Shown here in pieces: positions 1 to 22,995 of a stretch of 64,000 nucleotides of DNA (the stretch's first letter is position 1; each line of letters starts with the position of its first letter). Under the pieces are notes generated by a model, which saw nothing but the letters and a program-made list of their open reading frames with translations, had not been told where the DNA came from and made no database searches. Made by a program: the position numbers and the translations under genes. This stretch comes from a virus: IMG/VR virus record IMGVR_UViG_3300017727_000002; one strand, given 5' to 3'.

Positions 1-1263
1 ACGAATTTAGTTGACCAGTCATCAACTGCTATAAATGTCCCAGAGATTGACCAGAAAAAATTAATTAATACTGGAGATATTGGTTTAGCATTATCAACTT
101 CCTCGGGAACTGGTACTGTGAGTACAACTTCTGCTAGTCCTACTGTGACTGGTTCAGGAACTGCCTTTACAACCCAAGTCTCAGTTGGCGACACATTAAC
201 AACATCTGCTGGTGCATTAGGTAGAGTAAGAACTGTAGGAAGTGACACAAGTATAACACTATGTGATAACACTGCTCAAGTTTCTACTGGGGCAACTTTC
301 CAAATTACTTCTGACCCAGTAATTACATTTAAACATGGAGCAAAAGCTGTAGAGTCAAATGTAGATGCGATTGATAATCTACTTGATAATGTTACAGCAG
401 GAAGTCAGTTATACTTAACTAACATACACCCAGAATTAAATGGTGCTATCGATGTAGAGTCTGTTATTGTAAGCTCAAGCACACTACCATTCGGTGGTAA
501 TCAAGAGCTCGATAAAACTACTATAAATAAAACAGCGAACTTTAGTTTTAATGAAACTAACGATATTAAATTGGATGTCGCTCAAAACTTTACTGAGCAA
601 AAAGCAGGATTTACTATTACATCACAAACAAGTTCAATTAATGTCACAGCTTCTGGTGCAGTTGATGGTAAATTAATTGCTGGTGATATATTAGTTATCG
701 AAGATGCTGATGGTGTAGGGTCTCTTGCTACTGTTGGTGGTGTACAAGTATTTAATAAAACTATTCTTGGTACAGTCGCATCAGTAAATGGTACGAACAT
801 AGCATTGGCTGCAAACGCAACTGCTGCACTTACTGCTAAGAATGTAGTTATAAGAAAAGATATATCAGCTTCTACTTGGAACTTCTCTGCTATGGAAGAG
901 TTTGTTGCTGATACTGCTCCAGTTGGTGCTACTAATTTAGCAAACTATATAACTAGAACTCTAGAATTAACTAATCCAGCTGACGCATTAAATATTACAT
1001 TCGATGCTAATGTACCGAAGTCAACAAATTTACAAGTTTTATATAAAGCATTCTCTGGTGATACAAATCCTGATACTTTAAATTGGATAGATTCTGGATT
1101 TACTGTATCATCTAAAGATGCAGTTGATGTATTTACTGAAAGGAATATAACTGTAAGCGATATCCCTGAATTTACAAAGGTTGTTGTTAAGATTGTTATG
1201 AAATCTACTGATACAATCTCTGTACCAAAAGTTCAGGCATTCCGATTAATTTGTCATAGCTAG
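1..1263 (+). CDS. Large virion structural protein, C-terminal part (DUF4815-like, cyanophage-type); 5' end lies outside the window
   Basis: Frame 1 is open from base 1, so the track start at 118 is not the real start. Thr/Ser/Gly-rich. The C-terminus (YITRTLELTNPADAL...FTKVVVKIVMKS...VPKVQAFRLIC) resembles the end of DUF4815-type structural proteins of marine T4-like phages. Confidence 0.6.
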   Translation, partial: TNLVDQSSTAINVPEIDQKKLINTGDIGLALSTSSGTGTVSTTSASPTVTGSGTAFTTQVSVGDTLTTSAGALGRVRTVGSDTSITLCDNTAQVSTGATFQITSDPVITFKHGAKAVESNVDAIDNLLDNVTAGSQLYLTNIHPELNGAIDVESVIVSSSTLPFGGNQELDKTTINKTANFSFNETNDIKLDVAQNFTEQKAGFTITSQTSSINVTASGAVDGKLIAGDILVIEDADGVGSLATVGGVQVFNKTILGTVASVNGTNIALAANATAALTAKNVVIRKDISASTWNFSAMEEFVADTAPVGATNLANYITRTLELTNPADALNITFDANVPKSTNLQVLYKAFSGDTNPDTLNWIDSGFTVSSKDAVDVFTERNITVSDIPEFTKVVVKIVMKSTDTISVPKVQAFRLICHS

Positions 1264-1271
1264 GAGTAATT

Positions 1272-1502
1272 ATGATTTGGGCAGGAACTAAAATTGAAGG
1301 CGAACCAGATTTAAGAAAAGATAACGATAGTAAAGCGATTATCAATACTAATACTGATGCATACAAAAGATATAAACAACATCAATCTGGAAAAATAGCT
1401 GAGTTGGCGGAAAAAGAACGCATAAAAAAAGAAATAAATATACTTAAAGATGATGTTAAAGATATCAAAGATATGTTAATTAAACTCACGGAGAAACTAT
1501 AA
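1272..1502 (+). CDS. Small coiled-coil hypothetical protein
   Basis: SD (AGGAG) upstream; DSKAIINTN motif and a coiled-coil tail; occupies the position usually seen after DUF4815-like genes. Confidence 0.6.
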   Translation: MIWAGTKIEGEPDLRKDNDSKAIINTNTDAYKRYKQHQSGKIAELAEKERIKKEINILKDDVKDIKDMLIKLTEKL

Positions 1503-1711
1503 TGGCAAAGGAAGCTGCAGTCGCACAAGTAAGTCAGAGTGAAACCTTTGACCAGTGGCGAGTAAAAACGAATTTGAATATTACTAAGGGAAACAACCAA
1601 GAAGATAAACTTGGCGACTTAGCACTATTACAAAATGGAGAAGCTGATTTAACATCAGCTGTTAATAACGCAAGAGATTATTCAATAGCAATTAGTATTG
1701 CACTTGGTTAG
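1502..1711 (+). CDS. Short fibre/neck-associated peptide with TFDQWRVKTN N-terminus and SIALG C-terminus
   Basis: Translationally coupled (TAATG). The TFDQWRVKTN motif is typical of N-termini of T4-like fibre/whisker proteins. Confidence 0.55.
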   Translation: MAKEAAVAQVSQSETFDQWRVKTNLNITKGNNQEDKLGDLALLQNGEADLTSAVNNARDYSIAISIALG

Positions 1712-1733
1712 TCTTTAAGAAAAGGGAAAATAA

Positions 1734-2057
1734 ATGGCAAACGATTTTAAAAATGGATTGGCGAAGGATGTTGGGTCTTCGGCAGTCACACTCTACACAA
1801 CTCCCAGCTTAAAGCAATCCATCATTATCGAATGTGATGTATGCAATACAACTTCTGCTACTATAACCACTGATGTGTTTATAGCTTCTGGCGGACAAGA
1901 CTTCCATATTGTGAAGAACGCACCAGTCCCAACAGGTGGTACTCTTCAAGTGGTTTCTAACCAGAAAATTATATTAGAAAGTGGCGAAGTTTTAAAAGTA
2001 AAAAGTAGTGCAGCATCATCTGCGGATGTTATTGCTTCAATACTTGAAGATGTATAG
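1734..2057 (+). CDS. Conserved marine-phage MANxFKN-type beta-rich structural protein
   Basis: MANDFKN...VGSSAVTLYTTP...IILESGEVLKVKSS pattern; follows an ALG-ending gene. Confidence 0.55.
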   Translation: MANDFKNGLAKDVGSSAVTLYTTPSLKQSIIIECDVCNTTSATITTDVFIASGGQDFHIVKNAPVPTGGTLQVVSNQKIILESGEVLKVKSSAASSADVIASILEDV

Positions 2058-2067
2058 GAAATAAAAT

Positions 2068-4317
2068 ATGGCATATATTGGTTCACAAACTATTAATGCG
2101 AGTACTACACTCACGCGACCTAGAGACGAGTTCGTATGTGATGGTAATACCAAAGCATTTAAATTAAGTCAAGAAGTTCCTGGAGCATTTGAGTCAAATG
2201 TTCAGGTTGTACTTGGGAATATTATTCAAGAGCCAGTAAATGCTTACACTATACAGGATGTTTATAGATTAACATACTCAAATTTATCATTAACAATTGG
2301 TGCTAACCAACCAGCTCGTGGCGATTTAATTACGCAAGGTGCAAATACATTCTTAGTCACAGAAGCTACTACAGGAATTTTAGATGTAATGGCTGCAACT
2401 GCTGGTGGACCAGTACCAACTACTGGGGCAGGTTTAACATTAAATGTACCTAATATAGATTTCGGTGTAGATACGCAAGTTAAACATGATGATAATACAA
2501 TATCATATACTACTGGAACAATTACAGGAGTCAGTATTGTACAAAGTGGTGGCTCAGGATATGCTACTACTGATACAATTTTTATAGGTGCACCAAATAT
2601 TGGTGGTAATGAAACAGCTACTGCTAGTGTATCAATTTCTGCTCAAGGAGCAGTTCAAGAAATTACTGTCACTAAAGCTGGTAAAGGTTATACATCTGCA
2701 CCTGCTGTAAATATTACTTCTACAGGAAGTGGTACTAACGCAACTGCTACTGCTACTCTAGACTCTGATGGTGGTGTTGCTTCTATTGCTGTTGACTCAG
2801 GTGGGTCAGGTTATGACTCAACTACAACTACCATTACAATAGAAGATGCTACTACTGGTGGTGTTCAAGCAAAAGCAAGTATTACAAGTGTAGATGGTAG
2901 TGGTGCGATTACTGGTGTGACAATGACATCAGGTGGTTCTGGTTATACATCTAAACCAACTATATTTGTTTCAACTGGTGGTGCTACTACAACAAGTGGT
3001 ACAGGTACTATAAGTGTTGCTGCCAATTCAGCTACTGTGACTGGTGTAGGATCTGCCTTTTCAAGTCAACTAACTGTAGGAAATACATTATTCGTTGGTC
3101 AAAGTGTTGTAGGTGTAATTGATGCTATCGCTAGTGATACTTCATTAACTATTAAAACAGCAATTGGATCGACAGCTGTTAATAGTTCAGCATATAGTTT
3201 CGGTGTAAGAGCTGAATTAGATTTAACATTTACTGGTAATGAAGGAACACTTCAAGTTGATTCTGTAGAAACATTACAAAGAAGAGGTTTATATTTTAAT
3301 GGTGTTCCTAGACCAGAAGAAAATTTATATATTAATCACTTAGGTGGGTCAAGTTTCCAAAATGTTCCTTCTGCTGGATCTGTGACAGAAGATACCTTAG
3401 CAACTAATTTAAAAACATTTACTGTAGATAAATTTACTTCTACAGCTTCACAGTCAGCATTTACTTTATCTAAAACTCCACCAAGTGGTAATTCTATTCT
3501 AGTAATTATTAATGGTTCAGTACAAACTGAAACTACACACTACTCAGTATCTGGTACGACTTTAACATTAGTCACTCCATTATCTGCTGGTGTGACTGTC
3601 ACAGTTGTTCATATGGGTTTCAGTACAGTATCTAGAAACGCATTCGTAGATGGTACATTAACATCATCAGCATTTGCTGACTTAACATTAACTGGTAGCA
3701 AGATTGCTCAGAACACAATAGATAATACAAAACTTGCTACAAATACAGTTGTTAATCATTTAGGATATACTCCTGTAGCATCTAATGCAGGTTCAGCTCA
3801 AAGTATTAATGCTCAGTTAGCAATAACTGGCGACTTAGATTTATCTGCTGCTACAGCAGGACAAATTAAATTCCCACCATCACAAAATTCTTCATCTAAT
3901 GGTCAAACTTTAGATGACTACAGAGAAAGTTCATTAGCAACTTCTATGGGATTTGGTGGTGCTCAAGTTGGTTTACAAGCTGGAGCAACAGCTGTAAATA
4001 CAACATACTTTACTAAAGTTGGGAATATAGTTATGCTGAATATGGAAATGACTATTACTGCTAAAGGATCTTCTACAGGAAATGCAGCAATAGTATTACC
4101 AATCGTGGCTAATGCAGATGGCGATGCTATCATTCCTATCTGGTTTGAAGGAATGGCTTCTGGCGTGACAAGTATGATAGGTAGAATAGAAGGTGGATCT
4201 CAGTCTTTAAAATTATTTAAAAGAGATACTGATGGTGAATACACTACAGCAACCCATGCTGATTTTACTGATGCTTCACATCTGATTGGTTCAGGTACAT
4301 ATAGAAGTGCAACATAA
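2068..4317 (+). CDS. Tail-fibre-like virion structural protein (749 aa)
   Basis: Gly/Thr/Ser-rich with repeated xTxxGxGYTSxPxVxI units and FTxTxSQSAFTLS modules; lies in the structural block. Confidence 0.7.
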   Translation: MAYIGSQTINASTTLTRPRDEFVCDGNTKAFKLSQEVPGAFESNVQVVLGNIIQEPVNAYTIQDVYRLTYSNLSLTIGANQPARGDLITQGANTFLVTEATTGILDVMAATAGGPVPTTGAGLTLNVPNIDFGVDTQVKHDDNTISYTTGTITGVSIVQSGGSGYATTDTIFIGAPNIGGNETATASVSISAQGAVQEITVTKAGKGYTSAPAVNITSTGSGTNATATATLDSDGGVASIAVDSGGSGYDSTTTTITIEDATTGGVQAKASITSVDGSGAITGVTMTSGGSGYTSKPTIFVSTGGATTTSGTGTISVAANSATVTGVGSAFSSQLTVGNTLFVGQSVVGVIDAIASDTSLTIKTAIGSTAVNSSAYSFGVRAELDLTFTGNEGTLQVDSVETLQRRGLYFNGVPRPEENLYINHLGGSSFQNVPSAGSVTEDTLATNLKTFTVDKFTSTASQSAFTLSKTPPSGNSILVIINGSVQTETTHYSVSGTTLTLVTPLSAGVTVTVVHMGFSTVSRNAFVDGTLTSSAFADLTLTGSKIAQNTIDNTKLATNTVVNHLGYTPVASNAGSAQSINAQLAITGDLDLSAATAGQIKFPPSQNSSSNGQTLDDYRESSLATSMGFGGAQVGLQAGATAVNTTYFTKVGNIVMLNMEMTITAKGSSTGNAAIVLPIVANADGDAIIPIWFEGMASGVTSMIGRIEGGSQSLKLFKRDTDGEYTTATHADFTDASHLIGSGTYRSAT

Positions 4318-4318
4318 A

Positions 4319-4325
4319 CTAAATA
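4319..4325 (+). promoter_or_regulatory. gp55-type late promoter (CTAAATA)
   Basis: Intergenic CTAAATA just upstream of a structural gene; the same motif recurs before many late genes. Confidence 0.6.
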
Positions 4326-4344
4326 GGGTATAAGAGGAAATAAA

Positions 4345-4575
4345 ATGCCAATATCAAGAGTAAAATCTAACAGTTTAACTAAGAATATAGAATTACAAGG
4401 AGAATCATTTAGATTCCCCATTGGTACACAGGCAAACCGACCTTCACCTGCTAAGAAGGGAGATCTAAGATATAATTCAGATCTCGATAAAACTGAAATT
4501 TACGATGGCTCAAAGTGGGATGTATATAATTCGCAGGCAGTATCACTAGCTTTGAGTGTTGCTTTAGGAGGATAA
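4345..4575 (+). CDS. Small fibre-associated protein ending in ALSVALGG
   Basis: PIGTQANRP...GDLRYNSD...EIYDGSKW motif is common in tail-fibre modules; SD upstream. Confidence 0.6.
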   Translation: MPISRVKSNSLTKNIELQGESFRFPIGTQANRPSPAKKGDLRYNSDLDKTEIYDGSKWDVYNSQAVSLALSVALGG

Positions 4576-4578
4576 ATT

Positions 4579-5283
4579 ATGCACATTAATGTGCATGACG
4601 ACGACCAGTGGAACTGGGAAATTATTGCTACTAGAGCAAAACAAAATTTCATGGTGACTAAAGCTACTGGTAGAAAAGGTCAAACTGGTGTCATTGGGAT
4701 ACCGAATATTGAAAAGTGTACACTAACTTGCGTACACACTGGATTTATAGAGATACTTGATGAAGAAAAACAAGTATTGGGTACTATGGGTCCAGGAGCA
4801 AAGTTTCATTATGGGATACTTCAACAAGGTATTTCAGCAATGAAGCCAGAGTTGGGGAAAGTCGACTACTTAGGAAAGCCGATTCCCTCAGAAGAAGTTT
4901 GTAAGAGAGTGGCTAGTTATACTCATGTTCTTTTACGAACTGCTAGTGAAGAGAGTATATTTTATTGTTGTTCCGATCCTAAGGATATGTTCATTTGGGA
5001 AGGTGACAATTATGCTTTTGGGAACTTTTCAAGTTTTGATACCGATTGGGATTTAGAACTTGGTTCCGAGTTTGTTGTTGAACCAGAAATGGGTAAATAC
5101 TTTTTTGGTTATTCTGACAATCTTGAAATAAATGGAAAAAAAGTACCTAAATATAACAAGATAAACTCTTATGTATATGATGAACCCATGAGAATAAGAG
5201 GTGGTGAAGGTGATGCCTTCTCAATTTTTACTCAAGAGGGTATGTATAAAGAAACAAGTGGTAATAGAAGATACCAAATTTAA
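4579..5283 (+). CDS. Hypothetical protein (234 aa)
   Basis: Long ORF with SD (GGAGG); globular composition unlike the neighbouring fibres; no family recognised. Confidence 0.6.
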   Translation: MHINVHDDDQWNWEIIATRAKQNFMVTKATGRKGQTGVIGIPNIEKCTLTCVHTGFIEILDEEKQVLGTMGPGAKFHYGILQQGISAMKPELGKVDYLGKPIPSEEVCKRVASYTHVLLRTASEESIFYCCSDPKDMFIWEGDNYAFGNFSSFDTDWDLELGSEFVVEPEMGKYFFGYSDNLEINGKKVPKYNKINSYVYDEPMRIRGGEGDAFSIFTQEGMYKETSGNRRYQI

Positions 5284-5300
5284 TTTTATAGGAAATACTA

Positions 5301-8300
5301 ATGGCAAAAAAACTCATCGCAACTGGTTATACGATTAATGCAGCACAGAACCAGATTACTGTTCCTGGCATTATTCAACCAGTAAGGTTGCTATTAATAA
5401 CAGATATTAATAACAATACAATTTTATATAACTTCGCAGATCCAGCAACAGGTTTAGCCAATTTTGCTTACAACTATACTGCGGATACCACGACTTTCAC
5501 TACTACACTTGACTTGAGTGCTAATGGTGTCGAAAACTCACACGGATTACAGATATTCTATGAAACAGACTTTTCTAGACAAGGGTTTGAAGAAGCGATG
5601 CTTGACCCTGTTAATAAGTTGCGTGTTTCAAACCCAGAGAACTTAATTGATACTGACTTTGAGTATGGTCTTCAATCTTCTAAATGGGAAACTCTACAAA
5701 CAGTTTTAAATATTCCTACAATTTATTCACAAGCAGGTGATGTACCTCTTGAGCAATTAAGTTCAATTACAACTACTGCTAACTCTAAGCAAGTTAAAGT
5801 GACCACTACTGCCAACTCTGGTTTATCACTAGGGGATCCAGTTCTAGTACAAGGTACGACACTAAATGCTGCAGATGGTTTCTTCTTAGTGTCTGGTTTA
5901 ACTTCACAATTAGAATTCTTTTATGAAATGGATAATGCTGCAGAATCTACTGCAACTATTTCAGGTTCATATACTTCAGTTATCCCTGCTAAATTCTTTG
6001 AGGGATCTAACTTAAATATAGATTTAACAAGTACTGCGATTGAAACTGATGGAGCAAACCCATCTATAATGACAGTGACTACTGCTCAAACTCATGGACT
6101 TAAAGCTGGTACAAGAGTTTATTTAAGACAAACAGTTGGTCCGAAAAATTTAAGAATCGCTGACCCAACTGCTAATGGTGGAAACGCACCTGATGGCGCA
6201 CCATGGGTTGATACTCGTGCTACAATTACAACAACTACTACTGTAGATGCTACTACTGCTATCGGTGGTGGTGGTGCTCAAGAATTCCCTGTTGTCACTT
6301 GGGACTGGGAAGGTACATATAACTTGTATCTTGCTGCTTCAATGATTAATACAGGGTCAGATAGAATTACATGGACAAACCATGGATTTACTGATAATGC
6401 TTCACTAATATTTCAAACACAAATTAGAGGTCAAACGAATGGTGGTTTAGTAGATGGTACAGTTTACTATGTAAATGTTGTTGACGCAAACACAATCGAA
6501 TTATATTCTGACTATGGTACTCTTGGTTCAAGAATGAATTTAACTTCTTTTGATTTCACTAGAGGTCATCCTAGATTAACACTGGTATATAAAATCGAAG
6601 GAAATAATGGTACGCAAAGATTTACTGCTTTCTATAAAAGAAACCTAGTGACTGGTAGAGCTTTCCAAAACGCACAGGCAACTCAGAATACTACTAATAC
6701 ACAATCATTTAACTTTAGTATTACAACTTCAGGTTATACACCTATTAAAGCGACACTTACAAGAATCGCTTATGCTGGAAACTTAAACGATAGTGACGAA
6801 ACAGTTGCTGTATCAATACAAGCTAGAAACTATCTAGGACTTGGATCTAATAACTATGGTGTCACTGTTGGTGGTGTTGGTTCTTCAAACGGAAACCTTT
6901 ACCCTAACGCAGATGTGACTCGTTGTATTTATCAACAAGGTTCTAACTTCTACTTAACAACTTCATATACTCCAACTTCTTCAGTTATTGAAACTGATAA
7001 AGCTGGTTCTGTGACTACAGATTATCAATTAACTTTTTATGCAACTACTGACGAACTACCAACTTCAATGAATACTGCACACTCTGGTGCTGACTTAGCA
7101 TCTGGTAATAATAACTTCGGTCTTGGTGGTTCACAAGGTTCTAAATTATTTGCCTTTACTGGCAGATCTTCTGGAGGATCTTCAGGTACTTCTGCTGATA
7201 ACTATGCAAATAGTAATGACCCAGCTAGATTCGGTACAGGTATTCTAAGACAAACTGGTGCAGCAACTGCTTCATCAGTATCAGGTATTATTACAGTAAA
7301 CCAATCAGATGCGAATGCTGAAGATTATTCTTCTAATAGTACGCATGTCTATTATGGTTTCGCAAACGAATTAACTTCTTATAGAAATACTATCTATGCT
7401 CAAGCACATAATTTTATTGATGGTAATTCTGCTGTTATTAATGTAAACTCATATTCTACTACTAACAGATTTGAGTTCGTAGATTCTTCAGGAAATAATG
7501 TTCCTATTGCTCAAGCACAATTTAATGCTACGATTACTGTTATATCAGCTGACTATTTCAGATTACAAATTGCTCAGTCGCCAAATACTGATGATATATC
7601 GGCATTCCCTGAGTCATTTACAGTTGCTACAGCAACACCGAATACAACTTATAACTCAATTTATATTTCAAACCATAAATTAACAGGTGGTAATTTATCA
7701 TCTTACTCTACTACAGGTACAGTAATTGGTGGTCTAACTGGTGGTGCTAACTACACACTTCAGTACTTGAACGACTCCAGATTGATTATCAAGGATCCTA
7801 ATTTATCCTCTGGAAGTGGTTCTGCTACTACAGGTGCATTTGGTAGTACTTCTAACAATGCGTCTCAGTCGTTTACTGTAGATATCCAGACACCTCTTGG
7901 AATAACTCCATCAACTGCTACGATTACTCAAGTACAGTATAGAGGTGACTTTAGAAATACAAACGAATATGTTGATTTAGCATTCTCTGATGGCGATACT
8001 TATAGGATTGGTTCAGAGGGTGGTCAGGATACTAACCAGTTCTTGATTGACTCAGCTTTCGGTTCTAAAAATATTTCAAACCTATTAACTGGTTCGCCTA
8101 AGTCTATTAATGTGACAGTAAGTCCATCCTCTCAGGTAAACTTCTCTGTACAAGGTATGTCTAACTGGTGGGAAATAAGATTCGCAGTGACTGCTGCATC
8201 TGGTGATGTTATTCTATCATCTGCTGGTACAGGCGAACAATTATTTGAGTTGGCTGCAAACGAAGGTGCATACGATGGTGTGTATGGTATCGCTTCAGTT

Positions 8301-10796
8301 CCAAGTGCTACGACCTTTACTCTAAGTTCAGAGTTCCAGATTCCTAACAGGTTAATAACATTTGATGGTTCTAGTAAAGTAAACAGTGGTACAGATAAAA
8401 TTACACTAGGAACACAATCACCATTCCTTCCGCATAACTTATATCCTGGAGAGCAGGTCACTTATTCTAATGGTGGTAATACTGATATCGGTGTATTTAC
8501 TGATGTATCTCAACTTTATGTTATAGCAAATAACTCTATTGATATTCAGTTAGCATCTTCTTATGCTTCTGCTATCGCAGGAACTGCTCTTAACTTAACA
8601 GCAACTTCTGGTACTCATACCCTTACATCTAACTCGCTAGTTAAGATGACAAAAGCTGATGGTAATGTAGATTTCGCTAATGGCGGAAATATGGTCACTG
8701 GTACGACTACTACATTCTTAAAAGATTATAAGAGATTCGATAAGATTTACATTATCGTGAATGACTTAATCAGAGCATTTACTGTTGACGCAGTTATGAC
8801 TGATGAGAAAATGAGAATACAAGAAACATTCCCAGGAGCTGGTACTTCTGTTGAATACTTTAAAATTACTCAGTTATCATTACGACCTGATGGATTCGCA
8901 CTACATAAATCGTTTGATGGTGGTGTAGATATTACTGCGGGAACTTCGCCTAATAGTAAAATTGTTAGACAATCTCGTAAGTACTTTAGATATCAGTCTG
9001 GTAAAGGTATTCAAAACTCATTCGCGATTAACTTCTCGCCAGCAAAAGTTTTATCTTCACTAACTTATGCTTCAAGTGGTAATGTTGTTACAGCAATTAC
9101 TCAGGAGCCACATAACTTAGTGGTCGGAGATAGGATTACTGTTGAAGGTGCAGAAGTGACACTAGGAGAAAACTTATATCTTGGTACATTCCAAGTAGCA
9201 AGTGTTCCTAACGCAACAACTTATACTTATGTTGCTGCTGGTACTATTACTCAAACAAAAGCTGCAGGATTCCCAGAATATTACAGAGAATCTTGGAACG
9301 ACTCGTTCGTAAGAGCTGGTATGTTTGATGACCAGAATGGTTTCTTCTATGAGTACGATGGTCAAAAACTATATTGTGTAAGACGATCTTCTACTCTACA
9401 GATTTCAGGTAAAGTAAACACTACTGCTAACTCTCAGGTTGTGACAGGTACGACTACTTCGTTCACTACTCAGTTGGCTGCAGGCGACAAGTGTTCAATT
9501 AGGGGACAATCTTATCAGGTTGTTGCTGTTGACTCTGACCAAAGGATGATTATCCAACCTGCATATAAAGGTATATCTTCTACCAATGTTAAAATTACTA
9601 AAACAGTGGATATTAAAGTAGCACAGGAAAACTGGAATGTTGACCCATGTGATGGATTAGGTGATACAGGATTTAACTTGAATGTACATAAAATTCAAAT
9701 GGGATATGCTGACTATTCTTGGTATGGTGCTGGTAAAATTAGATTTGGTTTCAAAGATAGAAATGGTCATGTTCACTATAACCACGAATTTATTCACAAT
9801 AACAGAATTAACGAATCATACTTCCGTTCAGGAAACTTGCCAGGACGATATGAGATTGAGAATGGAAACGCTCCATCCTCTGCTCCTACCTTGTTCCACT
9901 TTGGTACATCTATAATTATGGATGGTACTTTCGATGACGATAAGGCATACTTGTTCTCGGCTAATAGTAAACCAATGGTATTTAAAGCAGGTTCTACAAC
10001 AACCTTTACTTCTGATGCAGTATCAACTTTCGATCTAGTGACTCTAGATAATAAGAGGGTGTATGTTTATGCAGTACCTTGTTCAGAGTCTGAAGCACAA
10101 ACAGTGACAGTGGGTCAGTTAATTAAAGACGCTGAAGGAAGAATACCTGCTGATGCTCTAGCTTATGTCACTCAGGTGATTGTAGATGGGTCTAACTCAA
10201 AAGTATTTACTTCTTATCCTGCTACTTCTAATGCACCAGAAACTGCTACTTATCCAAACATAACATCTGGTGTCACTATGACAATTGGTGAGAATGCTTA
10301 TGGTGGTGGCTCTGTTGATATGACAAGACCACACCCTCTAATCTCTATTAGATTGGCACCTTCAGTTGACTCAGGTTTAACAGGTGCGATTGGTGAGAAA
10401 GAAGTTATCAACAGAATGATATTGTCACTAAACAACGCAGGTGTGACAACTAACAAAGACTTAACAGCATTCTTTATCTTGAATGGTTTACCATCTAAGC
10501 TAGATTATACTAATGTTCAAAACCCTGCTTTATCGCAACTTATCTCACATGATACAGGTGATATCGTTCAACAAGGTACAGTGGTGTTCTCACAAGCTGT
10601 GTCAACTGGTTCATTGAACATTGACTTGACTGCTTTGATTGATATGGGTAATAGTATATTGGGTGGTGACTCAGTATTCCCAGCTGGTCCAGACTTGATG
10701 ACATTAGCAATACAGGCGAAGGATACTTCGACAATTACTGCTTCGTCACCATTTATCGTATCTGGTAAATTATCATGGAAAGAGTCGCAAACATAA
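5301..10796 (+). CDS. Giant virion structural / tail-fibre-like protein (1831 aa)
   Basis: Thr/Ser/Gly/Asn-rich; at least six H-x-L-x-x-G-x-x-V-type beta repeats (e.g. THGLKAGTRV, PHNLVVGDRI); structural neighbourhood. Confidence 0.75.
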   Translation: MAKKLIATGYTINAAQNQITVPGIIQPVRLLLITDINNNTILYNFADPATGLANFAYNYTADTTTFTTTLDLSANGVENSHGLQIFYETDFSRQGFEEAMLDPVNKLRVSNPENLIDTDFEYGLQSSKWETLQTVLNIPTIYSQAGDVPLEQLSSITTTANSKQVKVTTTANSGLSLGDPVLVQGTTLNAADGFFLVSGLTSQLEFFYEMDNAAESTATISGSYTSVIPAKFFEGSNLNIDLTSTAIETDGANPSIMTVTTAQTHGLKAGTRVYLRQTVGPKNLRIADPTANGGNAPDGAPWVDTRATITTTTTVDATTAIGGGGAQEFPVVTWDWEGTYNLYLAASMINTGSDRITWTNHGFTDNASLIFQTQIRGQTNGGLVDGTVYYVNVVDANTIELYSDYGTLGSRMNLTSFDFTRGHPRLTLVYKIEGNNGTQRFTAFYKRNLVTGRAFQNAQATQNTTNTQSFNFSITTSGYTPIKATLTRIAYAGNLNDSDETVAVSIQARNYLGLGSNNYGVTVGGVGSSNGNLYPNADVTRCIYQQGSNFYLTTSYTPTSSVIETDKAGSVTTDYQLTFYATTDELPTSMNTAHSGADLASGNNNFGLGGSQGSKLFAFTGRSSGGSSGTSADNYANSNDPARFGTGILRQTGAATASSVSGIITVNQSDANAEDYSSNSTHVYYGFANELTSYRNTIYAQAHNFIDGNSAVINVNSYSTTNRFEFVDSSGNNVPIAQAQFNATITVISADYFRLQIAQSPNTDDISAFPESFTVATATPNTTYNSIYISNHKLTGGNLSSYSTTGTVIGGLTGGANYTLQYLNDSRLIIKDPNLSSGSGSATTGAFGSTSNNASQSFTVDIQTPLGITPSTATITQVQYRGDFRNTNEYVDLAFSDGDTYRIGSEGGQDTNQFLIDSAFGSKNISNLLTGSPKSINVTVSPSSQVNFSVQGMSNWWEIRFAVTAASGDVILSSAGTGEQLFELAANEGAYDGVYGIASVPSATTFTLSSEFQIPNRLITFDGSSKVNSGTDKITLGTQSPFLPHNLYPGEQVTYSNGGNTDIGVFTDVSQLYVIANNSIDIQLASSYASAIAGTALNLTATSGTHTLTSNSLVKMTKADGNVDFANGGNMVTGTTTTFLKDYKRFDKIYIIVNDLIRAFTVDAVMTDEKMRIQETFPGAGTSVEYFKITQLSLRPDGFALHKSFDGGVDITAGTSPNSKIVRQSRKYFRYQSGKGIQNSFAINFSPAKVLSSLTYASSGNVVTAITQEPHNLVVGDRITVEGAEVTLGENLYLGTFQVASVPNATTYTYVAAGTITQTKAAGFPEYYRESWNDSFVRAGMFDDQNGFFYEYDGQKLYCVRRSSTLQISGKVNTTANSQVVTGTTTSFTTQLAAGDKCSIRGQSYQVVAVDSDQRMIIQPAYKGISSTNVKITKTVDIKVAQENWNVDPCDGLGDTGFNLNVHKIQMGYADYSWYGAGKIRFGFKDRNGHVHYNHEFIHNNRINESYFRSGNLPGRYEIENGNAPSSAPTLFHFGTSIIMDGTFDDDKAYLFSANSKPMVFKAGSTTTFTSDAVSTFDLVTLDNKRVYVYAVPCSESEAQTVTVGQLIKDAEGRIPADALAYVTQVIVDGSNSKVFTSYPATSNAPETATYPNITSGVTMTIGENAYGGGSVDMTRPHPLISIRLAPSVDSGLTGAIGEKEVINRMILSLNNAGVTTNKDLTAFFILNGLPSKLDYTNVQNPALSQLISHDTGDIVQQGTVVFSQAVSTGSLNIDLTALIDMGNSILGGDSVFPAGPDLMTLAIQAKDTSTITASSPFIVSGKLSWKESQT

Positions 10797-10808
10797 GAGG
10801 ACTCTAAT

Positions 10809-11420
10809 ATGGCATATCTCGGCAGAGAAATACAGTTTGGCAGTTATGAGAAGCAAACCTTTGCTACCAATGGGGCAGATACAAGTTTCACATTAAACTT
10901 CCCAGCACCTAGAGAAGAAGCACTTCTAGTAGTAAAAGATGGTGTGGTTCTAAAACCTGGAACTGGATATACTTTATCTAATGGTGGTGTTACAATTAAT
11001 ATTACAGGTGGAGCATTAGCATCTTCTGTAGATTTATATTGTGTATTCTTAGGAAAAGAACTTACCATACAAAATGTTGGTGACAATTCAGTCACCCATT
11101 CTAAACTTACTACACCTATACGACAGTCAGTAAAAACAGATTTTACTGTAATCAATAGTACTCAAACCCTTGTAGCTTCTAGGCATTATTTTGTTGACAC
11201 TACAGCAGGTGTTGTGACTGTCACCTTTCCTGCATCTCCATCTCTTGGAGATACTGTATATGTTTCTGATGCTTATGGGACTTGGGATACAAATAATTGT
11301 ACTGTAAATCCTAATAACAATTCTATTAATGGCTCATCAGGAAACGCAACGCTCTCATCAGAGTACGATTCAAAAGAATACATTTTTATTGGCGGAACAG
11401 CTGGTTGGCGAACTGTTTAA
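10809..11420 (+). CDS. Fibre-associated structural protein
   Basis: FATNGADTSFTL module and a C-terminal YFVDTTAGVVTVTFPASPSLGDTV...DAYGTWDTNNCTVNPN domain typical of phage fibre proteins. Confidence 0.65.
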   Translation: MAYLGREIQFGSYEKQTFATNGADTSFTLNFPAPREEALLVVKDGVVLKPGTGYTLSNGGVTINITGGALASSVDLYCVFLGKELTIQNVGDNSVTHSKLTTPIRQSVKTDFTVINSTQTLVASRHYFVDTTAGVVTVTFPASPSLGDTVYVSDAYGTWDTNNCTVNPNNNSINGSSGNATLSSEYDSKEYIFIGGTAGWRTV

Positions 11421-11424
11421 TTAA

Positions 11425-11431
11425 CTAAATA
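11425..11431 (+). promoter_or_regulatory. Late promoter (CTAAATA)
   Basis: Intergenic, 18 nt before the ATG at 11450. Confidence 0.6.
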
Positions 11432-11449
11432 GTCACTAAGGAGAACTTA

Positions 11450-11785
11450 ATGGCTGCAATTACAGATATATTCATTGACCAAGGAACTGACTTTACATTA
11501 CAACTAAGTGTTGTAGATACAGTTGGTACTGCTAAGAATTTAACTGGGGCAACTATTACAGCTCAAGCTAGGAAAGATTTCACTAGTGCAAATCCTACTG
11601 CTACATTTACTACTGCTGTGACTAACGCAATCGGTGGTGTATGTACTATAACTTTGCCAGCTGCAACTACTGCTGGCATAAAAGCAGGAAGATATGTTTA
11701 CGATGTGAATGTATTAGATTCAACTAACACTACAACTAGAGCAGTCGAAGGATTAATGACTGTAAGACCAGAGGTGACAAGATAA
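11450..11785 (+). CDS. Conserved marine-myophage structural protein (IDQGTDF motif; BppU-like beta-sandwich)
   Basis: IFIDQGTDFTLQL...AGRYVYDV...RAVEGLMTVRPEVTR pattern; SD AGGAG. Confidence 0.6.
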   Translation: MAAITDIFIDQGTDFTLQLSVVDTVGTAKNLTGATITAQARKDFTSANPTATFTTAVTNAIGGVCTITLPAATTAGIKAGRYVYDVNVLDSTNTTTRAVEGLMTVRPEVTR

Positions 11786-12084
11786 TGCCTGATGTAAAAA
11801 GTACGATAGCAACGCAAGAAGGAACTAATCCTACAGTTCCAAGTACAGGTACACAGACTACAACTACTATTACTACTGGTACAAGTCAATCGGCTACTGT
11901 ATCATCTGTAGGTGTTGCTGGAACAAGTGGTACTGCTGTAAATTTAGAGCAGGGTCAAAATGTAGATGCTACAACTGATGGTTTACAAAATGGATCTATC
12001 TTAGTATATAAAACAGCGACCTCCCAATGGCAGGTCACAAAATTAATGAACGAGGGTCAACAGCTCGATTCAGGAGAATTTTAA
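11785..12084 (+). CDS. Small Thr-rich structural protein
   Basis: Coupled to the previous gene (TAATG); C-terminal NGSILVY...QWQ...LDSGEF motif. Confidence 0.55.
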   Translation: MPDVKSTIATQEGTNPTVPSTGTQTTTTITTGTSQSATVSSVGVAGTSGTAVNLEQGQNVDATTDGLQNGSILVYKTATSQWQVTKLMNEGQQLDSGEF

Positions 12085-12096
12085 TAGGAGACAAAG

Positions 12097-13932
12097 ATGG
12101 CAGCAATTGTTAGAATAAAAAGATCGGCGACTTCGGGTAATCCCACCACACTTGGTGCAGGAGAACTCGCATATTCAGGTCTTACCGATAATGGATCCAA
12201 TGGTGGTGATAGACTATATGTTGGATTCGGTACAGAAACTGCAGGTAATGCAGCAAACCACTTCGTAATAGGTGGTAAATATTTTACAGATGAAGTAGAT
12301 GCAGCAACGACTGCTAATACAGCAAGTACGATTGTAAAACGAAATGGAAGTGGAAACTTCTCAGCAGGAACTATTACTGCTACACTAAGTGGTAATGCTA
12401 CATCAGCAACTTCTGCTGCAGCTTGGACTACTGGAAGAACTATAACTATCGATGGCGATGTAGATGGTTCTGCTTCAGGTGTTGATGGTTCAGGTGATGT
12501 TACAATTACTACTGCCTTAGATGCTACAGGAGTCTCCGCAGGATCTTATGGTAGTACAACTGCTATCCCAATTATTACTGTTGATGCTAAGGGTCGTATT
12601 ACTGCTGCAAGTACTGGCTCAATATCAACTTCATTTACACTAACTGATGGATCTAATTCAGAAACTATCGCAGGTGGCAACACATTAACTGTCACAGCTG
12701 GTGAAGGTATTGATGCAGTAGTTGGTTCAACTGATACTCTAACTATTTCAGCAGAAGATGCTACCTCTTCTAATAAAGGTATTGCTTCTTTCGGTGGAGA
12801 CTTTAGTGTATCAAGTGGTGCTGTATCACTAGCTAATAACTCAGTCACAATCGGATCTGACGCAGTAGCACTAGGTGGTTCAAGAACAGATATAAATGGA
12901 TTAACAAGTTTAGATGTAGATAATATGACATTAGATGCTAATGCTATTTCTACAACAGATACAAATGGAAATTTAGAACTATCGCCAAATGGTACTGGTA
13001 CTGTTGTTGTTCCAGCTTCATACGAAGCTAGAGCAGGTTTCTCAAGTCAATCGCTAGTAAATAAATCATATGTTGATTCGGTCACTTCAGGTTTATCAGT
13101 TAAGTCGCCTGTTAAAGTGGCTACTACTGGCAACCTTGCTGCAACTTATAATAATGGAGCAGGTACATTAACAGCAAACTCTAACTTCGCATTATCAGTT
13201 GATGGTGTCACAGTTTCAGTAAACGATAGAGTATTAGTTAAAGACCAAAGTACTGCTGCTCAAAATGGTTTTTATAAAGTCACAGCTACTGGTTCAGGAT
13301 CTGCTGCTTTCGTTTTAACCAGAACTCCTGACGCAGATGCTGCTTCAGAATTAGTTGCTGGTGCATTCGCTTTCGTTGAAGAAGGAACTGCTAACGCAGA
13401 TAATGGTTATGTACTATCAACTGATGGAGCTGTCACACTAGGTACGACTGCTATTAACTTTGAGCAGTTTTCAGGTGCTGGGCAAATTAGTGCTGGTGAT
13501 GGTTTAGCAAAAACAGGAAACTCATTATCTTTAAATGTAGATAATAGTTCAATAGAAATAAATGCTGATACTGCTAGAGTGAAAGCATTAGGTGTTACCA
13601 ATGCTATGTTAGCAGGAAGTATTACCAATGCAAAATTATCAAACTCAAGTGTCACAATTAATAGTAATTCGCTCGCATTAGGTGCTTCTTTAACACTAGA
13701 TTCAGACGACATAGGCGAAGGATCTACAAACGAATACTTTACTAATACCAGAGCAAGAGGTGCACTAAGTGTGACATCTTCAACTGGTTTAACATATAAT
13801 AATAGTACAGGTGTTCTAGCAGGTCTTGACGCAACAGCATCGGTGAAAGGTATAGCATCTTTCGCTTCAGCAAACTTTACAGTCACAAGTGGAGCAGTAG
13901 CAATAACTGGTGTTGATGGCGGAACATACTAA
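12097..13932 (+). CDS. Tail fibre protein with Mtd-like N-terminal motif (611 aa)
   Basis: IVRIKRSATSGNPTTLGAGELAYS N-terminus; KSPVKVATTGNL...DRVLVKDQSTAAQNGFY fibre module; ends DGGTY. Confidence 0.75.
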   Translation: MAAIVRIKRSATSGNPTTLGAGELAYSGLTDNGSNGGDRLYVGFGTETAGNAANHFVIGGKYFTDEVDAATTANTASTIVKRNGSGNFSAGTITATLSGNATSATSAAAWTTGRTITIDGDVDGSASGVDGSGDVTITTALDATGVSAGSYGSTTAIPIITVDAKGRITAASTGSISTSFTLTDGSNSETIAGGNTLTVTAGEGIDAVVGSTDTLTISAEDATSSNKGIASFGGDFSVSSGAVSLANNSVTIGSDAVALGGSRTDINGLTSLDVDNMTLDANAISTTDTNGNLELSPNGTGTVVVPASYEARAGFSSQSLVNKSYVDSVTSGLSVKSPVKVATTGNLAATYNNGAGTLTANSNFALSVDGVTVSVNDRVLVKDQSTAAQNGFYKVTATGSGSAAFVLTRTPDADAASELVAGAFAFVEEGTANADNGYVLSTDGAVTLGTTAINFEQFSGAGQISAGDGLAKTGNSLSLNVDNSSIEINADTARVKALGVTNAMLAGSITNAKLSNSSVTINSNSLALGASLTLDSDDIGEGSTNEYFTNTRARGALSVTSSTGLTYNNSTGVLAGLDATASVKGIASFASANFTVTSGAVAITGVDGGTY

Positions 13933-13934
13933 AA

Positions 13935-13960
13935 GTTATAAGAAATAGTTTTTTTATAAC
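13935..13960. repeat. Inverted repeat GTTATAA-N12-TTATAAC
   Basis: Intergenic palindrome between two fibre genes; identical arms and spacing at 29825-29850. Confidence 0.5.
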
Positions 13961-13982
13961 TAATTTAATTTAGGAATGGTTT

Positions 13983-16016
13983 ATGTCCACTGTAATAAAA
14001 GTAAAAAGATCTGAAGTCGCATCAAGTGTTCCAAGCACTTCTGATTTAGCTGTCGGCGAAATTGCAGTAAATACCCAAGATAAAAAGATTTATGTTCGTG
14101 CTTCAGGTGGTGTAGTAGAAGTTGCGAATGTTGTAGCAGGTGGTGCTTCAGGAGATATTACCGAAGTTCTTACTGCAACTGGTTCAGGTTTAACAGGTGG
14201 CTCTACTTCTGGTTCAGCAAATCTAGCAATTAATGTAGACGATTCTTCTCTACAAATATCAGGAAATACAGTACAAGTAAAAGCAAGTGGTGTCACGAAT
14301 GCCATGCTTGCTAATTCAGGTGTGACTATAAACTCACAGTCATTATCATTAGGTGGTACACTAACATTAGACTCAGATAATATTGGTGAAGGATCTACTA
14401 ATCTTTACTACTCTAATGAACGAGTTGATGATAGAATATCAGCTCTAGTTCAAAATGGTACAGGTCTTTCTTGGACTTACGATGACAACGCAAACTCATT
14501 TACACCTGCTGTCACACTTTCGCCTTTTGATACTTATAATTTATCAGAAGGATCTACCAACAAATACTTTAGCAATACATTAGCAAATAGTGCAATAGAT
14601 GCACGAGTCACAAAAACTTTTGTTGATAATTTAAATGTAGTTGCTGCAAGTGCTACAGGTAATGCTGCCACTGCTACAGCTTTGGCTAGTGCTCAAAATT
14701 TTAGTTTGACTGGAGATGTCACTGCTTCAGCAGTTTCATTTGATGGTCAGGGTGCAGTTCAACTTACTACCGATATTGCTGCCAACTCTATTACTCCTAC
14801 TGAATTAAATGTCACAGATGCTGCAGGTGCATTACAATCTGATGGAGCAGGAAACTTATCATTCGCTCCAGCTACTGCATCATTTTCTGCGATAGGAGAA
14901 CATGTATTACCATCAGTTGATGATACTTACGATCTAGGATCCTCTACTAAAAAATGGAGAAACTTATATGTTGGTGGCGATACTATATTCCTAGACGACG
15001 CTAAAATTATGAAACAGGGTTCATCATTAATGATGAATCCAGGAGTATCTAACTCTATATCGTCAGTCACAGTAAATAACGATGGTGCTGGTTATTTAGA
15101 ACAACCAAACTTGTCATTCCCATTACCAAACACTTCAGGTGTAGATGTTGTCACTATGACTAATGCTGGTGGTGGATATACTGGTCCACCAGCAGTCACG
15201 ATAGATGCACCAAGTACGACTCCTGGAGTTCAAGCAACAGGAACAGCTGTAATGGTTGATGATGGCACTGGAAATAATACATTCGCTGTAAGTGGTGTTA
15301 CAATTAATAATGGTGGGTCAGGTTATCCGACTGCACCAAATATCACGATTGCTGCAACACCGAATGCTGGAGGAGGTGCTGTTCAGGCAACTGCTAATAC
15401 TACAGTTTCGCCAGCAACTAATGGTGGAAGTATAGCAGGAGCGTATGCTACTATTGATGTAAATACTGGAAAAGTATTAACTGTGGTAATAACCGATGCT
15501 GGTGGGGGATATACAACTGTTCCTACTATAACTGTAGATAGTCCAAATAAAGATATTACATTTAATACAACTGTATATAATGATTATAGTACAGGAAATA
15601 ATTACTACACATTATCAGGTGGCATAAACCAACAATTGGATATTATACAAGGTCAAACTTATACCTTTGACTTATCATCAGCTACACACTCTGGGCACTT
15701 ATTTGCTTTGAGTTCAACTCAAGATGGTATTCATGGTGGTGGTACAAAATTAACATCAGGTGTGACTTATACTGGTACACAAGGCACGACAGGTGCTAAA
15801 ATGGTACTGGTGGTAGATGCTAACACACCGACTACACTATACCCTTATTGTGAAACACACTCTGGTATGGGTGGTACAGCATCATTAACAAAGATTTCTA
15901 GTGGTACGACTGCTGTTTTAACTCCTGTTCTAAGTAGTTATAACTCAGCATTAGACAAGAAATTTGCTATGGAACCATTTTCAATAGCAATGTCTATCGC
16001 ACTAGGGGGATCATAA
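13983..16016 (+). CDS. Tail fibre protein with Mtd-like N-terminus, cupredoxin-like domain and SIALGGS C-terminus (677 aa)
   Basis: VIKVKRSEVASSVPSTSDLAVGEIAVN N-terminus; EGSTNLYY repeats; GxGYxxxP repeats; H...CETHSGM motif. Confidence 0.75.
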   Translation: MSTVIKVKRSEVASSVPSTSDLAVGEIAVNTQDKKIYVRASGGVVEVANVVAGGASGDITEVLTATGSGLTGGSTSGSANLAINVDDSSLQISGNTVQVKASGVTNAMLANSGVTINSQSLSLGGTLTLDSDNIGEGSTNLYYSNERVDDRISALVQNGTGLSWTYDDNANSFTPAVTLSPFDTYNLSEGSTNKYFSNTLANSAIDARVTKTFVDNLNVVAASATGNAATATALASAQNFSLTGDVTASAVSFDGQGAVQLTTDIAANSITPTELNVTDAAGALQSDGAGNLSFAPATASFSAIGEHVLPSVDDTYDLGSSTKKWRNLYVGGDTIFLDDAKIMKQGSSLMMNPGVSNSISSVTVNNDGAGYLEQPNLSFPLPNTSGVDVVTMTNAGGGYTGPPAVTIDAPSTTPGVQATGTAVMVDDGTGNNTFAVSGVTINNGGSGYPTAPNITIAATPNAGGGAVQATANTTVSPATNGGSIAGAYATIDVNTGKVLTVVITDAGGGYTTVPTITVDSPNKDITFNTTVYNDYSTGNNYYTLSGGINQQLDIIQGQTYTFDLSSATHSGHLFALSSTQDGIHGGGTKLTSGVTYTGTQGTTGAKMVLVVDANTPTTLYPYCETHSGMGGTASLTKISSGTTAVLTPVLSSYNSALDKKFAMEPFSIAMSIALGGS

Positions 16017-16020
16017 GGAA

Positions 16021-16027
16021 CTAAATA
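16021..16027 (+). promoter_or_regulatory. Late promoter (CTAAATA) for gp13
   Basis: Ends 5 nt before the gp13 ATG. Confidence 0.65.
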
Positions 16028-16032
16028 GTACT

Positions 16033-17004
16033 ATGGCAAATCCAGCAACAAGAGACCAATTAAAAGATTACGCATTGCGAAGTCTAGGATCGCCAGTGAT
16101 TGAAATAAATGTAGCTGACGAACAGTTAGAAGATCGCTTAGACGAAGCGATAGAATATTTTAATATTAATCATTGGAATGGTACTGAACGAGCATATTTC
16201 CAACATGTAATAGTTGGCACCAAACTAACACTTACTGCTGCTGTCGCAGGAAATTTTACTGGAGGGGAAACTATTACTGGTGGAACCACAGGTGCTAAAG
16301 CAGTTGTACATAAAAGTTCAACTGGTTCTGATATATTCTATCAAGTATTAATTAATCCTGGACCAGACCAAGTAAAATTTCAGGGTGGCGAAACTATTAC
16401 TGGTGACCAATCTGGTGCTACAGCAATTATATCAACTATTACTAGAGGAGACTGCGAAAATGGATTTATTCCAGTCACTGATGAGATATTTGGTGTAAAT
16501 AAAGTTTTTACAGTTTTTTCTAATACTACAGATTCTAGAAATATATTCGACTTACAATATCAATTAAGATTAAATGATTTATACGACTTGACCTCTACAA
16601 GTATTGTTTACTACACTACTGTTATGGGTCATTTAAGTTTACTTGATTTAATGTTAAATGGTAAAACTTTGTATCGTTTTAACAGAATGCAAAATAAACT
16701 ATTTCTAGATGTTGACTTCCGAAGCGATGTAAAAATCGGAGACTCTGTGATGGTCGATGTTTATAAAGCATTAAGTGGTACAGAATATCCAAAAGTATTT
16801 GGCGAACCATGGTTGAAAAAATATACTGCTGCTCTGTTTAAGAAACAGTGGGGACTTAATCTTAAAAAGTTTTCGGGACTAGTTTTACCTGGAGGTGTTT
16901 CAATGGATGGCGATGGTATATATAACGAAGCCATGAACGAACTACAACAACTAGAAGACGAACTCATAGGAAAAGGTGCACCACTAGAGTTCTTTACAGG
17001 GTAA
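16033..17004 (+). CDS. 13: Neck protein gp13
   Basis: LRSLGSPVIEINVADEQLEDRLDEAIEYF and WLKKYTAALFKKQWGLNLKKF...LPGGV motifs; synteny. Confidence 0.92.
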   Translation: MANPATRDQLKDYALRSLGSPVIEINVADEQLEDRLDEAIEYFNINHWNGTERAYFQHVIVGTKLTLTAAVAGNFTGGETITGGTTGAKAVVHKSSTGSDIFYQVLINPGPDQVKFQGGETITGDQSGATAIISTITRGDCENGFIPVTDEIFGVNKVFTVFSNTTDSRNIFDLQYQLRLNDLYDLTSTSIVYYTTVMGHLSLLDLMLNGKTLYRFNRMQNKLFLDVDFRSDVKIGDSVMVDVYKALSGTEYPKVFGEPWLKKYTAALFKKQWGLNLKKFSGLVLPGGVSMDGDGIYNEAMNELQQLEDELIGKGAPLEFFTG

Positions 17005-17007
17005 TAA

Positions 17008-17937
17008 ATGGCTGGAAGAAATACTTACATATCTCAAGGAGTAGCGTCTGAACAGAATTTAATAGAGTCTTTAATTATTGAGTCTTTAAAAATTTATGGT
17101 CAGAATGTTTTCTATATCCCTAGAACTCAAGTAGCTAAAGATGAAATCTTAGGCGAAGATCCATTATCTAAATTTGAGCAAGCATTTCCTATCGAAATGT
17201 ATTTCGAGAATGTAGATAACTTAGGTGGGCAAGGTCCATTTATACAAAAGTTTGGATTGTTTAATGAGATGTCTGCTACTCTAGTTGTAGCAAGATCTAG
17301 GTGGCAAGAATTAGTTGGGCAACATGGTAATACCTTTGTGCCTAATAGACCGAACGAAGGAGACTTAATTTATTTTCCATTAACTAAAGGATTATTTGAA
17401 ATTAAATTCGTACAACACCAAGACCCCTTTTATCAACTAGGAAAATTATATACATTTAAAATGGAAGTCGAGTTATTTCAATATGCTTCTGAGAAAATTG
17501 ATACAGGTGTTGCCGATATTGATAAGTTTGAAGAACTTAAAACTTTCTCACAAGATCCTACAAGGTCAGAGAATATGTTTGTTGATACAATAACATTTAC
17601 TAATGTCGGTGCAGGTTATACTACTCCGCCAACTCTAACTTTCTCAGGTGGTACTCCTAGTGTCATTGCTACTGCTACTTGTACTGTTGATGGAACTACA
17701 GGTAAAGTAAATGGTGTCACTCTTACTAATGTGGGGGATGGTTATAATGCTGTTCCTACAATCGATGTTTCTGCTCCACCAGCAGGTGGTACTCAAGCTG
17801 TCGCAGTTGCTACTATTAAATTAAATGTAGATAAACAAGGTGGCTTCGCTGATAACTTAGAACTAGAAACTGAAAGACAACCTGACACTAACGAAAAAGT
17901 TGCGTGGTCAGAAAATAATCCGTTTGGAGAATTTTAA
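17008..17937 (+). CDS. 14: Neck protein gp14
   Basis: ESLKIYGQNVFYIPR, PNEGDLIYFP, FYQLGK motifs; ends NPFGEF. Confidence 0.92.
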   Translation: MAGRNTYISQGVASEQNLIESLIIESLKIYGQNVFYIPRTQVAKDEILGEDPLSKFEQAFPIEMYFENVDNLGGQGPFIQKFGLFNEMSATLVVARSRWQELVGQHGNTFVPNRPNEGDLIYFPLTKGLFEIKFVQHQDPFYQLGKLYTFKMEVELFQYASEKIDTGVADIDKFEELKTFSQDPTRSENMFVDTITFTNVGAGYTTPPTLTFSGGTPSVIATATCTVDGTTGKVNGVTLTNVGDGYNAVPTIDVSAPPAGGTQAVAVATIKLNVDKQGGFADNLELETERQPDTNEKVAWSENNPFGEF

Positions 17938-18689: not shown

Positions 18690-18701
18690 GAGAAATTATA
18701 A

Positions 18702-19601: not shown

Positions 19602-19622
19602 TAATCTCCGCAAGGAGGACTA

Positions 19623-21212: not shown

Positions 21213-21225
21213 ATATCGTAAAAAA

Positions 21226-21232
21226 CTAAATA
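21226..21232 (+). promoter_or_regulatory. Late promoter (CTAAATA) for gp18; second copy at 21209-21215
   Basis: Two CTAAATA copies upstream of the sheath gene. Confidence 0.6.
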
Positions 21233-21294
21233 AAAGCATGAGAGTTAAATAAGCTCTCACTGAATTTAATAATTCATTTAATAAGGAGAAACAA

Positions 21295-22974: not shown

Positions 22975-22995
22975 GAATAAAAGGAGAAAAAACAA

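Follow-up and report, generated by a model that had tools for sequence, protein, structure and literature searches.

Flank-dependent avoidance of the palindrome GTWAC in a clade of uncultured marine T4-like phages

The 64,000-nucleotide stretch of IMG/VR virus record IMGVR_UViG_3300017727_000002 analysed here (the window) is a piece of an uncultured marine T4-like myovirus, and we found that it is strongly purged of the palindromic pentamer GTWAC (GTTAC plus GTAAC), with 12 sites where synonymous shuffling of codons leads to an expectation of 134.4, an 11-fold depletion. The purge is confined to one genus-level phage clade and depends on the bases that flank the word, this flank dependence being the new element of the analysis. 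A GTWAC-specific restriction enzyme of the host is probably the cause. The window has 36% GC and carries every gene on the + strand, with structural genes (portal, sheath, capsid) followed by recombination and replication genes, a TET/JBP dioxygenase and a TAGT glycosyltransferase. By amino acid identity of the portal protein, the closest cultured phages are Methylophilales phage Melnitz (57%) and Pelagibacter phage Mosig (54%).

GTWAC is avoided at the DNA level in a single clade

The shuffled null consisted of 200 within-gene synonymous shuffles that keep protein sequence and codon usage, and when all 4-6-mers were scanned with this codon and amino acid control, as had been proposed in a sequence-only reading of the same DNA, GTWAC ranked as the most depleted word. 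A maximal-order Markov model also gave a large deficit (12 sites against 90 expected). The depletion extends over the three reading frames (observed/expected 10/86 in frame 0, 2/39 in frame 1 and 0/7.6 in frame 2), the 3.2 kb of intergenic DNA contains no site, and the coding strand is short of GTTAC as well as of GTAAC. The single-base neighbours NTWAC, GTWAN, GNWAC and GTWNC all stand at 0.78-1.27 of expectation; thus no dinucleotide or general codon-pair effect accounts for the loss, and the avoidance is one of DNA sequence, aimed at precisely this palindromic 5-mer. Neither of the two outcomes that the sequence-only reading had set against its own proposal, an expected frequency under shuffling (we obtained z -17.4) and a dinucleotide or codon-pair explanation, was found. 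GTWAC is significantly under-represented independently of frame and strand, the pattern by which restriction-site avoidance is recognised. The complementary word GTSAC is about doubled in the window (approximately 138-139 sites versus 65 expected).

The avoidance is most easily seen in codon choice at Val-Thr pairs, where it had been noticed from a hand count in five open reading frames (ORFs) starting at 118, 1734, 2068, 4579 and 5301. Our recount gave the same figures: among 33 Val-Thr pairs, 31 are GTS-ACN and two are GTT-ACA, the Val codons being 19 GTG, 12 GTC and 2 GTT. The suggestion that the pattern continues across the window also holds, with 107 GTS and 10 GTW among 117 Val-Thr pairs (9% W), whereas Val before the 15 other next-dinucleotides has 63-92% W (85% before AA, 63% before AG and 79% before AT). 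Of the exceptions that had been named, those at 391 and 27934 are present as given and the third, given as 13595, lies at 13594. A second codon context shows the same loss by another route: after a codon of the form xGT, Tyr and Asn are written 2 times as WAC and 313 times as WAT, compared with 2483 and 5271 times after other codons (Fisher 4e-48; three genomes pooled).

We compared the window with four IMG/VR relatives at 83-96% nucleotide identity (among them G001-G003, of which G002 spans 131 kb), with the next relatives outside the clade (G130, G131 and G132, portal identity at most 69%, G132 being complete at 162 kb) and with cultured phages. GTWAC is depleted in all four close relatives (against the Markov expectation, 2/34 in G001, 8/150 in G002 and 7/95 in G003) and likewise in further clade fragments. 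The outgroups are normal (270/279 in G130, 344/314 in G131 and 416/382 in G132), as are Melnitz, a phage of OM43 (101/92), and Mosig, a phage of SAR11 (99/85). Over 162 compared loci of at least 6 kb each, the ratio falls below 0.3 only in the 21 loci of the clade, with a median of 1.04, and the depletion is limited to the clade defined by portal identity of at least 87%. The outgroups lack the bias although their GC content and codon usage are the same, and the depletion tracks phage lineage or host range and not composition.

Flanking bases and the turnover of residual sites

When the window, G002 and G003 were pooled and sites classed by their flanks, the avoidance proved to be complete at VGTWACB, which has neither a preceding T nor a following A (0 observed versus 218 expected), nearly complete with a single T or A flank (8 versus 224) and much relaxed at TGTWACA, with both flanks (19 versus 53). 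Val-Thr pairs follow the same rule: GTW is kept in 19 of 111 pairs where T precedes and the Thr codon is ACA, in 4 of 125 and 2 of 76 pairs with one such flank, and in none of 106 with neither. Both sides act alike, T standing 5' in 23 of 25 and A standing 3' in 21 of 25, and this symmetry is to be expected of a palindrome under a DNA-level effect. The flank effect recurs in other clade fragments.

A similar dependence is found for different words in the outgroups. By flank class (none, one, both), G132 has 0/38, 5/55 and 11/19 for GGCC and 0/43, 6/52 and 7/13 for CGCG, and G131 has 0/29, 0/41 and 10/14 for GGCC. We considered a coding constraint from Trp-Pro as the source of the residual TGGCCA sites in these outgroups, and rejected it because TGG-CCN occurs in merely 3 of 11 and 4 of 20 of them. 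A general protection by T..A flanks was also rejected, as it fails for ACGT (0/40), CCGG (0/approximately 34, pooled) and TGATCA (0/60). The GCGC pattern of G130 and G132 is accounted for by RGCGCY plus CGCG. The flank rule may stem either from a preference for certain flanks inherent in the enzymes or from a partial shielding of sites by T-directed modification.

The residual sites themselves turn over (Table 1). Ten of the 12 in the window are absent from G002 and G003, where GTSAC mostly stands instead, leaving those at 13594 and 23359 as the only conserved ones. Since most of the sites are lineage-specific, purging appears to be ongoing, with sites arising and then being removed. We also observed that the structural module concentrates residual GTWAC, holding 11 of 12 sites in the window (391-29316), 8 of 8 in G002 (85.6-116.3 kb) and 6 of 7 in G003. 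In G002 this module holds only 38% of the GTSAC sites, so that finding all eight GTWAC sites there has p = 4e-4. Recombination import in fibre genes and weaker purging are both possible reasons for this clustering.

Table 1. Residual GTWAC sites and related features (window coordinates unless another locus is named; lower case marks flanking bases)
Feature	Position	Strand	Remarks
GTWAC depletion with compensating GTSAC excess	1..64000	.	codon shuffle and Markov model
Five ORFs with 33 Val-Thr pairs	118..10796	+	recount
tGTTACa, T..A flanks, frame 0	391..395	.	GTTAT in G002
tGTTACa, frame 0	9087..9091	.	GTCAC, GTGAC in G002, G003
tGTTACa, frame 0	10989..10993	.	
tGTTACa, frame 0	12499..12503	.	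GTCAC in relatives
tGTTACc	13594..13598	.	one of just two sites that G002 and G003 share with the window
tGTTACa, frame 0	15297..15301	.	
gGTAACa, frame 1	21734..21738	.	within tail sheath gene
gGTAACa, frame 1	22097..22101	.	within tail sheath gene
tGTAACa	23359..23363	.	conserved in G002, G003 and five more clade loci
tGTTACt	27934..27938	.	GTGAC in G001, G002 and G003
aGTTACa	29316..29320	.	end of major capsid gene
gGTAACa	36794..36798	.	sole site beyond structural module
TET/JBP dioxygenase and TAGT glycosyltransferase, DNA-modification module	56288..58413	+	Pfam PF12851 2e-20, PF20691 1e-11
Accessory gene in swap slot, restriction-endonuclease-like lead	59886..61091	+	AlphaFold2 model, structural matches, motif
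Swap-slot gene, restriction-endonuclease-like lead	L085:11069-12139	-	
Swap-slot gene, restriction-endonuclease-like lead	L090:7694-9034	-	

A probable host restriction enzyme and its alternatives

Two agents of selection had been offered in the sequence-only reading, a GTWAC-recognising restriction system of the host and the phage's own nuclease. The first is the better supported, given the palindrome, the depletion in all frames, the limitation to one clade and the parallel purging of other Type II sites; the second was rejected (see below). We consider it likely that the avoidance results from a GTWAC-specific restriction enzyme of the host. In this view, a site-specific nuclease met in a marine host, likely a Type IIP enzyme of a restriction-modification system, would make double-strand cuts at GTWAC. 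None of the three methyltransferase families looked for turned up in the phage DNA examined, and genomes bearing GTWAC would be cut. Variants that lose the word synonymously would then be fixed, Val-Thr pairs passing from GTW to GTS, and Gly, Ser, Cys or Arg followed by Tyr or Asn passing from xGT-WAC to xGT-WAT or xGN-WAC. Mutation would keep making new sites, which would be purged in turn. VGTWACB would be under the heaviest selection and TGTWACA under the lightest, either because the enzyme disfavours a T at -1 and an A at +1 or because such sites are partly shielded.

This explanation is favoured by the company in which GTWAC is lost, which includes such classical Type II words as ACGT, CCGG, GCGC, GGCC and AAGCTT, and others. 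It would add a new case to restriction-site avoidance, a known counter-defence that has been surveyed in virulent dsDNA phages (Rusinov et al. 2018, PMC6286503). As in that survey, short palindromes are strongly under-represented, removed synonymously and lineage-specific in their loss; the present phage differs in the unusual breadth of the purge (approximately 20 words), in its flank dependence and in having a DNA-modification module alongside. GTWAC has been reported as a methylated motif from marine metagenome-assembled genomes, with no match among REBASE methyltransferase motifs (Hiraoka et al. 2022, PMC8919816). Word and habitat are identical to those of the present phage, and the mark is of the kind that avoidance predicts for a host, but the main text of that study names no carrier genome and no link to this phage emerged.

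The Type IIP enzymes MaeIII (GTNAC) and Tsp45I (GTSAC) recognise five-base GT-N-AC palindromes with a degenerate centre, as GTWAC is. GTSAC is two-fold enriched here, however, and neither specificity fits; the target that we infer is the complementary, W-centred subset. To our knowledge, no cognate or prototype enzyme has been described for GTWAC.

Several observations weigh against a host enzyme. No host, enzyme or methylome is linked to this phage. Two scans of genome contigs, one with a 54-amino-acid riboswitch-linked peptide and one with a peptide deformylase, yielded no host lead: the peptide has no relative among genome contigs, all its homologues being phage-like, and the contigs found with the deformylase were without exception distant or probably mis-binned, and normal in GTWAC. 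No GTWAC-depleted genome was found among 121 of one marine gammaproteobacterial order searched with a 12-bit probe (AGTWACY), although these genomes may still be hosts because hosts methylate their own sites. The T..A exemption recurs for other words in other phages, which a property of one enzyme cannot explain, and one might expect a phage with a TET/JBP-glycosyltransferase module to have no need of site avoidance.

If a host enzyme is responsible, the finding predicts a restriction specificity for GTWAC that is biased against T at -1 and A at +1. Matching the list of purged words (GTWAC, ACGT, ACSGT, GCGC, GGCC, CCGG, TGATC and others) to long-read methylomes is a practical route to host assignment, which would serve an abundant uncultured phage genus.

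Among the alternatives, the one that fares best is that another nuclease, conserved in the clade and encoded by the phage, targets GTWAC, the avoidance being self-immunity. We regard this as improbable. Solitary endonucleases do seem to belong to the biology of this clade, as one genomic slot holds three unrelated nuclease-like genes (see below), and approximately 64 kb of G002 falls outside the window region and is unannotated. However, the clade-specific conserved genes within the window region encode a GT-A-like transferase, a sulfotransferase-like protein, a fibre-like protein and a lipoprotein, none of them nuclease-like, and some 20 purged words exceed what a phage's own nucleases could explain. 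Less probable still is that GTWAC serves as a functional phage signal (packaging, nicking or regulatory) allowed only at set places. The conservation of sites 13594 and 23359 across the clade would suit a signal, but the other ten sites are unconserved, all lie within coding sequence, no longer motif is common to them beyond the T..A flanks, and many unrelated palindromes are purged in parallel.

A mutation or repair bias is a highly doubtful source of the depletion. It could take the form of very-short-patch-type conversion of GTWAC to GTSAC accompanied by a GT(5-methylcytosine)AC methylase, or of a codon-pair or dinucleotide bias. The doubling of GTSAC would agree with it, and so would GTTAC being, as we reason, the deamination product of GT(5-methylcytosine)AC. 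The removal of frame 1 sites by change of WAC to WAT makes no GTSAC and cannot come from conversion, which rules out the very-short-patch-type route; moreover, the neighbour words are normal, the deficit persists under the Markov model, the outgroups of the same GC and codon usage are unbiased and no C5 methylase was found.

The weakest alternative, which we reject, is that the product of ORF 59886 cleaves GTWAC, perhaps in breaking down host DNA, with the phage protected by the absence of sites; its predicted restriction-endonuclease-like fold with a D..SxK motif and the lack of any methyltransferase found in the phage would fit, but G002 and G003 avoid GTWAC equally strongly without the gene, and carriers of its homologues in eight other phage lineages have normal GTWAC.

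The ORF itself is nonetheless reasonably labelled a nuclease on its predicted structure. It has no Pfam match, and a Foldseek search against the PDB gave nothing significant. Its AlphaFold2 model (predicted local distance difference test score 89) resembles most closely MspI (Z 6.1), HinP1I (Z 5.7) and HhaI (Z 5.4) among the structural matches (VIA), with others at most 3.9 and all Z below 8, and the invariant residues D178...S192-x-K194 form a D..SxK pattern. The ORF is thereby a candidate for the MspI/HinP1I/HhaI-like Type IIP group, whose PD-(D/E)XK core carries a non-acidic residue in the second motif (D...N/Q/S-x-K). No copy was detected by tblastn in G002 or G003, though the flanks of the slot are syntenic on both sides; the homologues in the eight other lineages share 37-64% identity. 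This swap slot lies between a conserved gene of 182 amino acids and ORF 61219, and each of three related phages has a different, unrelated gene in it; for the two of G002 and G003, a protein atlas offers no more than restriction-enzyme leads. We also considered the nuclease-like slot genes as a cause of the loss of CCGG, GCGC and GGCC, but this is not supported, since phages of other lineages that have homologues of ORF 59886 retain those words.

Other purged words, possible DNA modification and neighbouring genes

GTWAC is one of approximately 20 words purged from the window, most of them palindromic. Strongly purged are ACGT (0/114), CCGG (0/32), GCGC (2/25), GGCC (1/28) and TGATC (7/115), and further depleted words include AAGCTT, GGTACC, GTTAAC, GTATAC, ACCAGG and ACCWGGT. 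ACSGT is also lost (0/62), whereas ACWGT is normal, making it a second 5-mer in which W and S are discriminated; we know of no enzyme for ACSGT. Some of these words are purged clade-wide. ACGT is missing altogether from G001-G003 as well, and from the cultured SAR11 phage Mosig (0/47). ACTAGT is avoided in the window alone (2/18 versus 33/39 and 17/21). Such variation of avoided words among clade members would be given by strain-variable restriction-modification repertoires. GATC is avoided just beside T or A, standing at 1.36 with no such flank and at 0.14 with one, with 0/60 for TGATCA (window, G002 and G003); the avoidance acts as that of an asymmetric 5-mer, TGATC, and is far weaker in G002 (42/201).

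Three further depletions were noted. The non-palindromic ACGG/CCGT stands at 18/132 in the window, and its survival by preceding base is 0.39 and 0.22 after C or G, and 0.05 and 0.04 after A or T. Trp-Pro dipeptides number 1, 0 and 0 in the proteomes of the window, G002 and G003 among 883 Trp, where approximately 28 are expected; Trp-Pro forces TGG-CCN and hence GGCC, so that this scarcity amounts to GGCC avoidance at the amino acid level. Through most of the wider pelagimyophage-like family (L013-L080, G130-G132), there is no CCGG and hardly any GGCC or CGCG, including in phages that retain ACGT and GTWAC, and G132 is also short of TGTACA (1/27).

The TET/JBP and glycosyltransferase module of the window is also present in G002, G003 and G130-G132. 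Characterised phage TET enzymes act on 5-methylcytosine placed by a co-encoded C5-methyltransferase (Burke et al. 2021, PMC8256090). The present module resembles those hypermodification clusters in having a TET/JBP dioxygenase beside a glycosyltransferase in a marine phage, but the known clusters include a C5-methyltransferase and none was found in the present phages. We detected no methyltransferase of the C5, N6/N4 or D12 families (PF00145, PF01555 and PF02086) in the clade members G001-G005, and no PF00145 C5-methyltransferase in the TET/JBP carriers, including the complete G132. Because even G132 has none, the dioxygenase may act on thymine, and the module is a candidate for what exempts sites with T..A flanks. 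In a tentative form of this idea, which we think rather unlikely, the exemption would be the footprint of thymine-directed modification, with a base-J-like glycosyl-hydroxymethyluracil at T-G/T-C steps partly shielding the abutting sites and avoidance covering the rest. If so, the avoidance map would reveal in which sequence context an undescribed phage base occurs. In phages with TET/JBP, the flank rule provides an inexpensive way to test for context-specific DNA modification from sequence alone.

Elsewhere in the window, the clade-specific GT-A-like transferase (with a DGDD motif) and the sulfotransferase-like protein are encoded by two adjoining genes (41079-42613), neither of which is present in the outgroup phages examined. 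There is one tRNA-Arg(TCT) at 44796-44871, and a glutamine riboswitch (RF01739, 40.8 bits) at 29404-29527 lies upstream of the 54-amino-acid peptide, which belongs to DUF4278.

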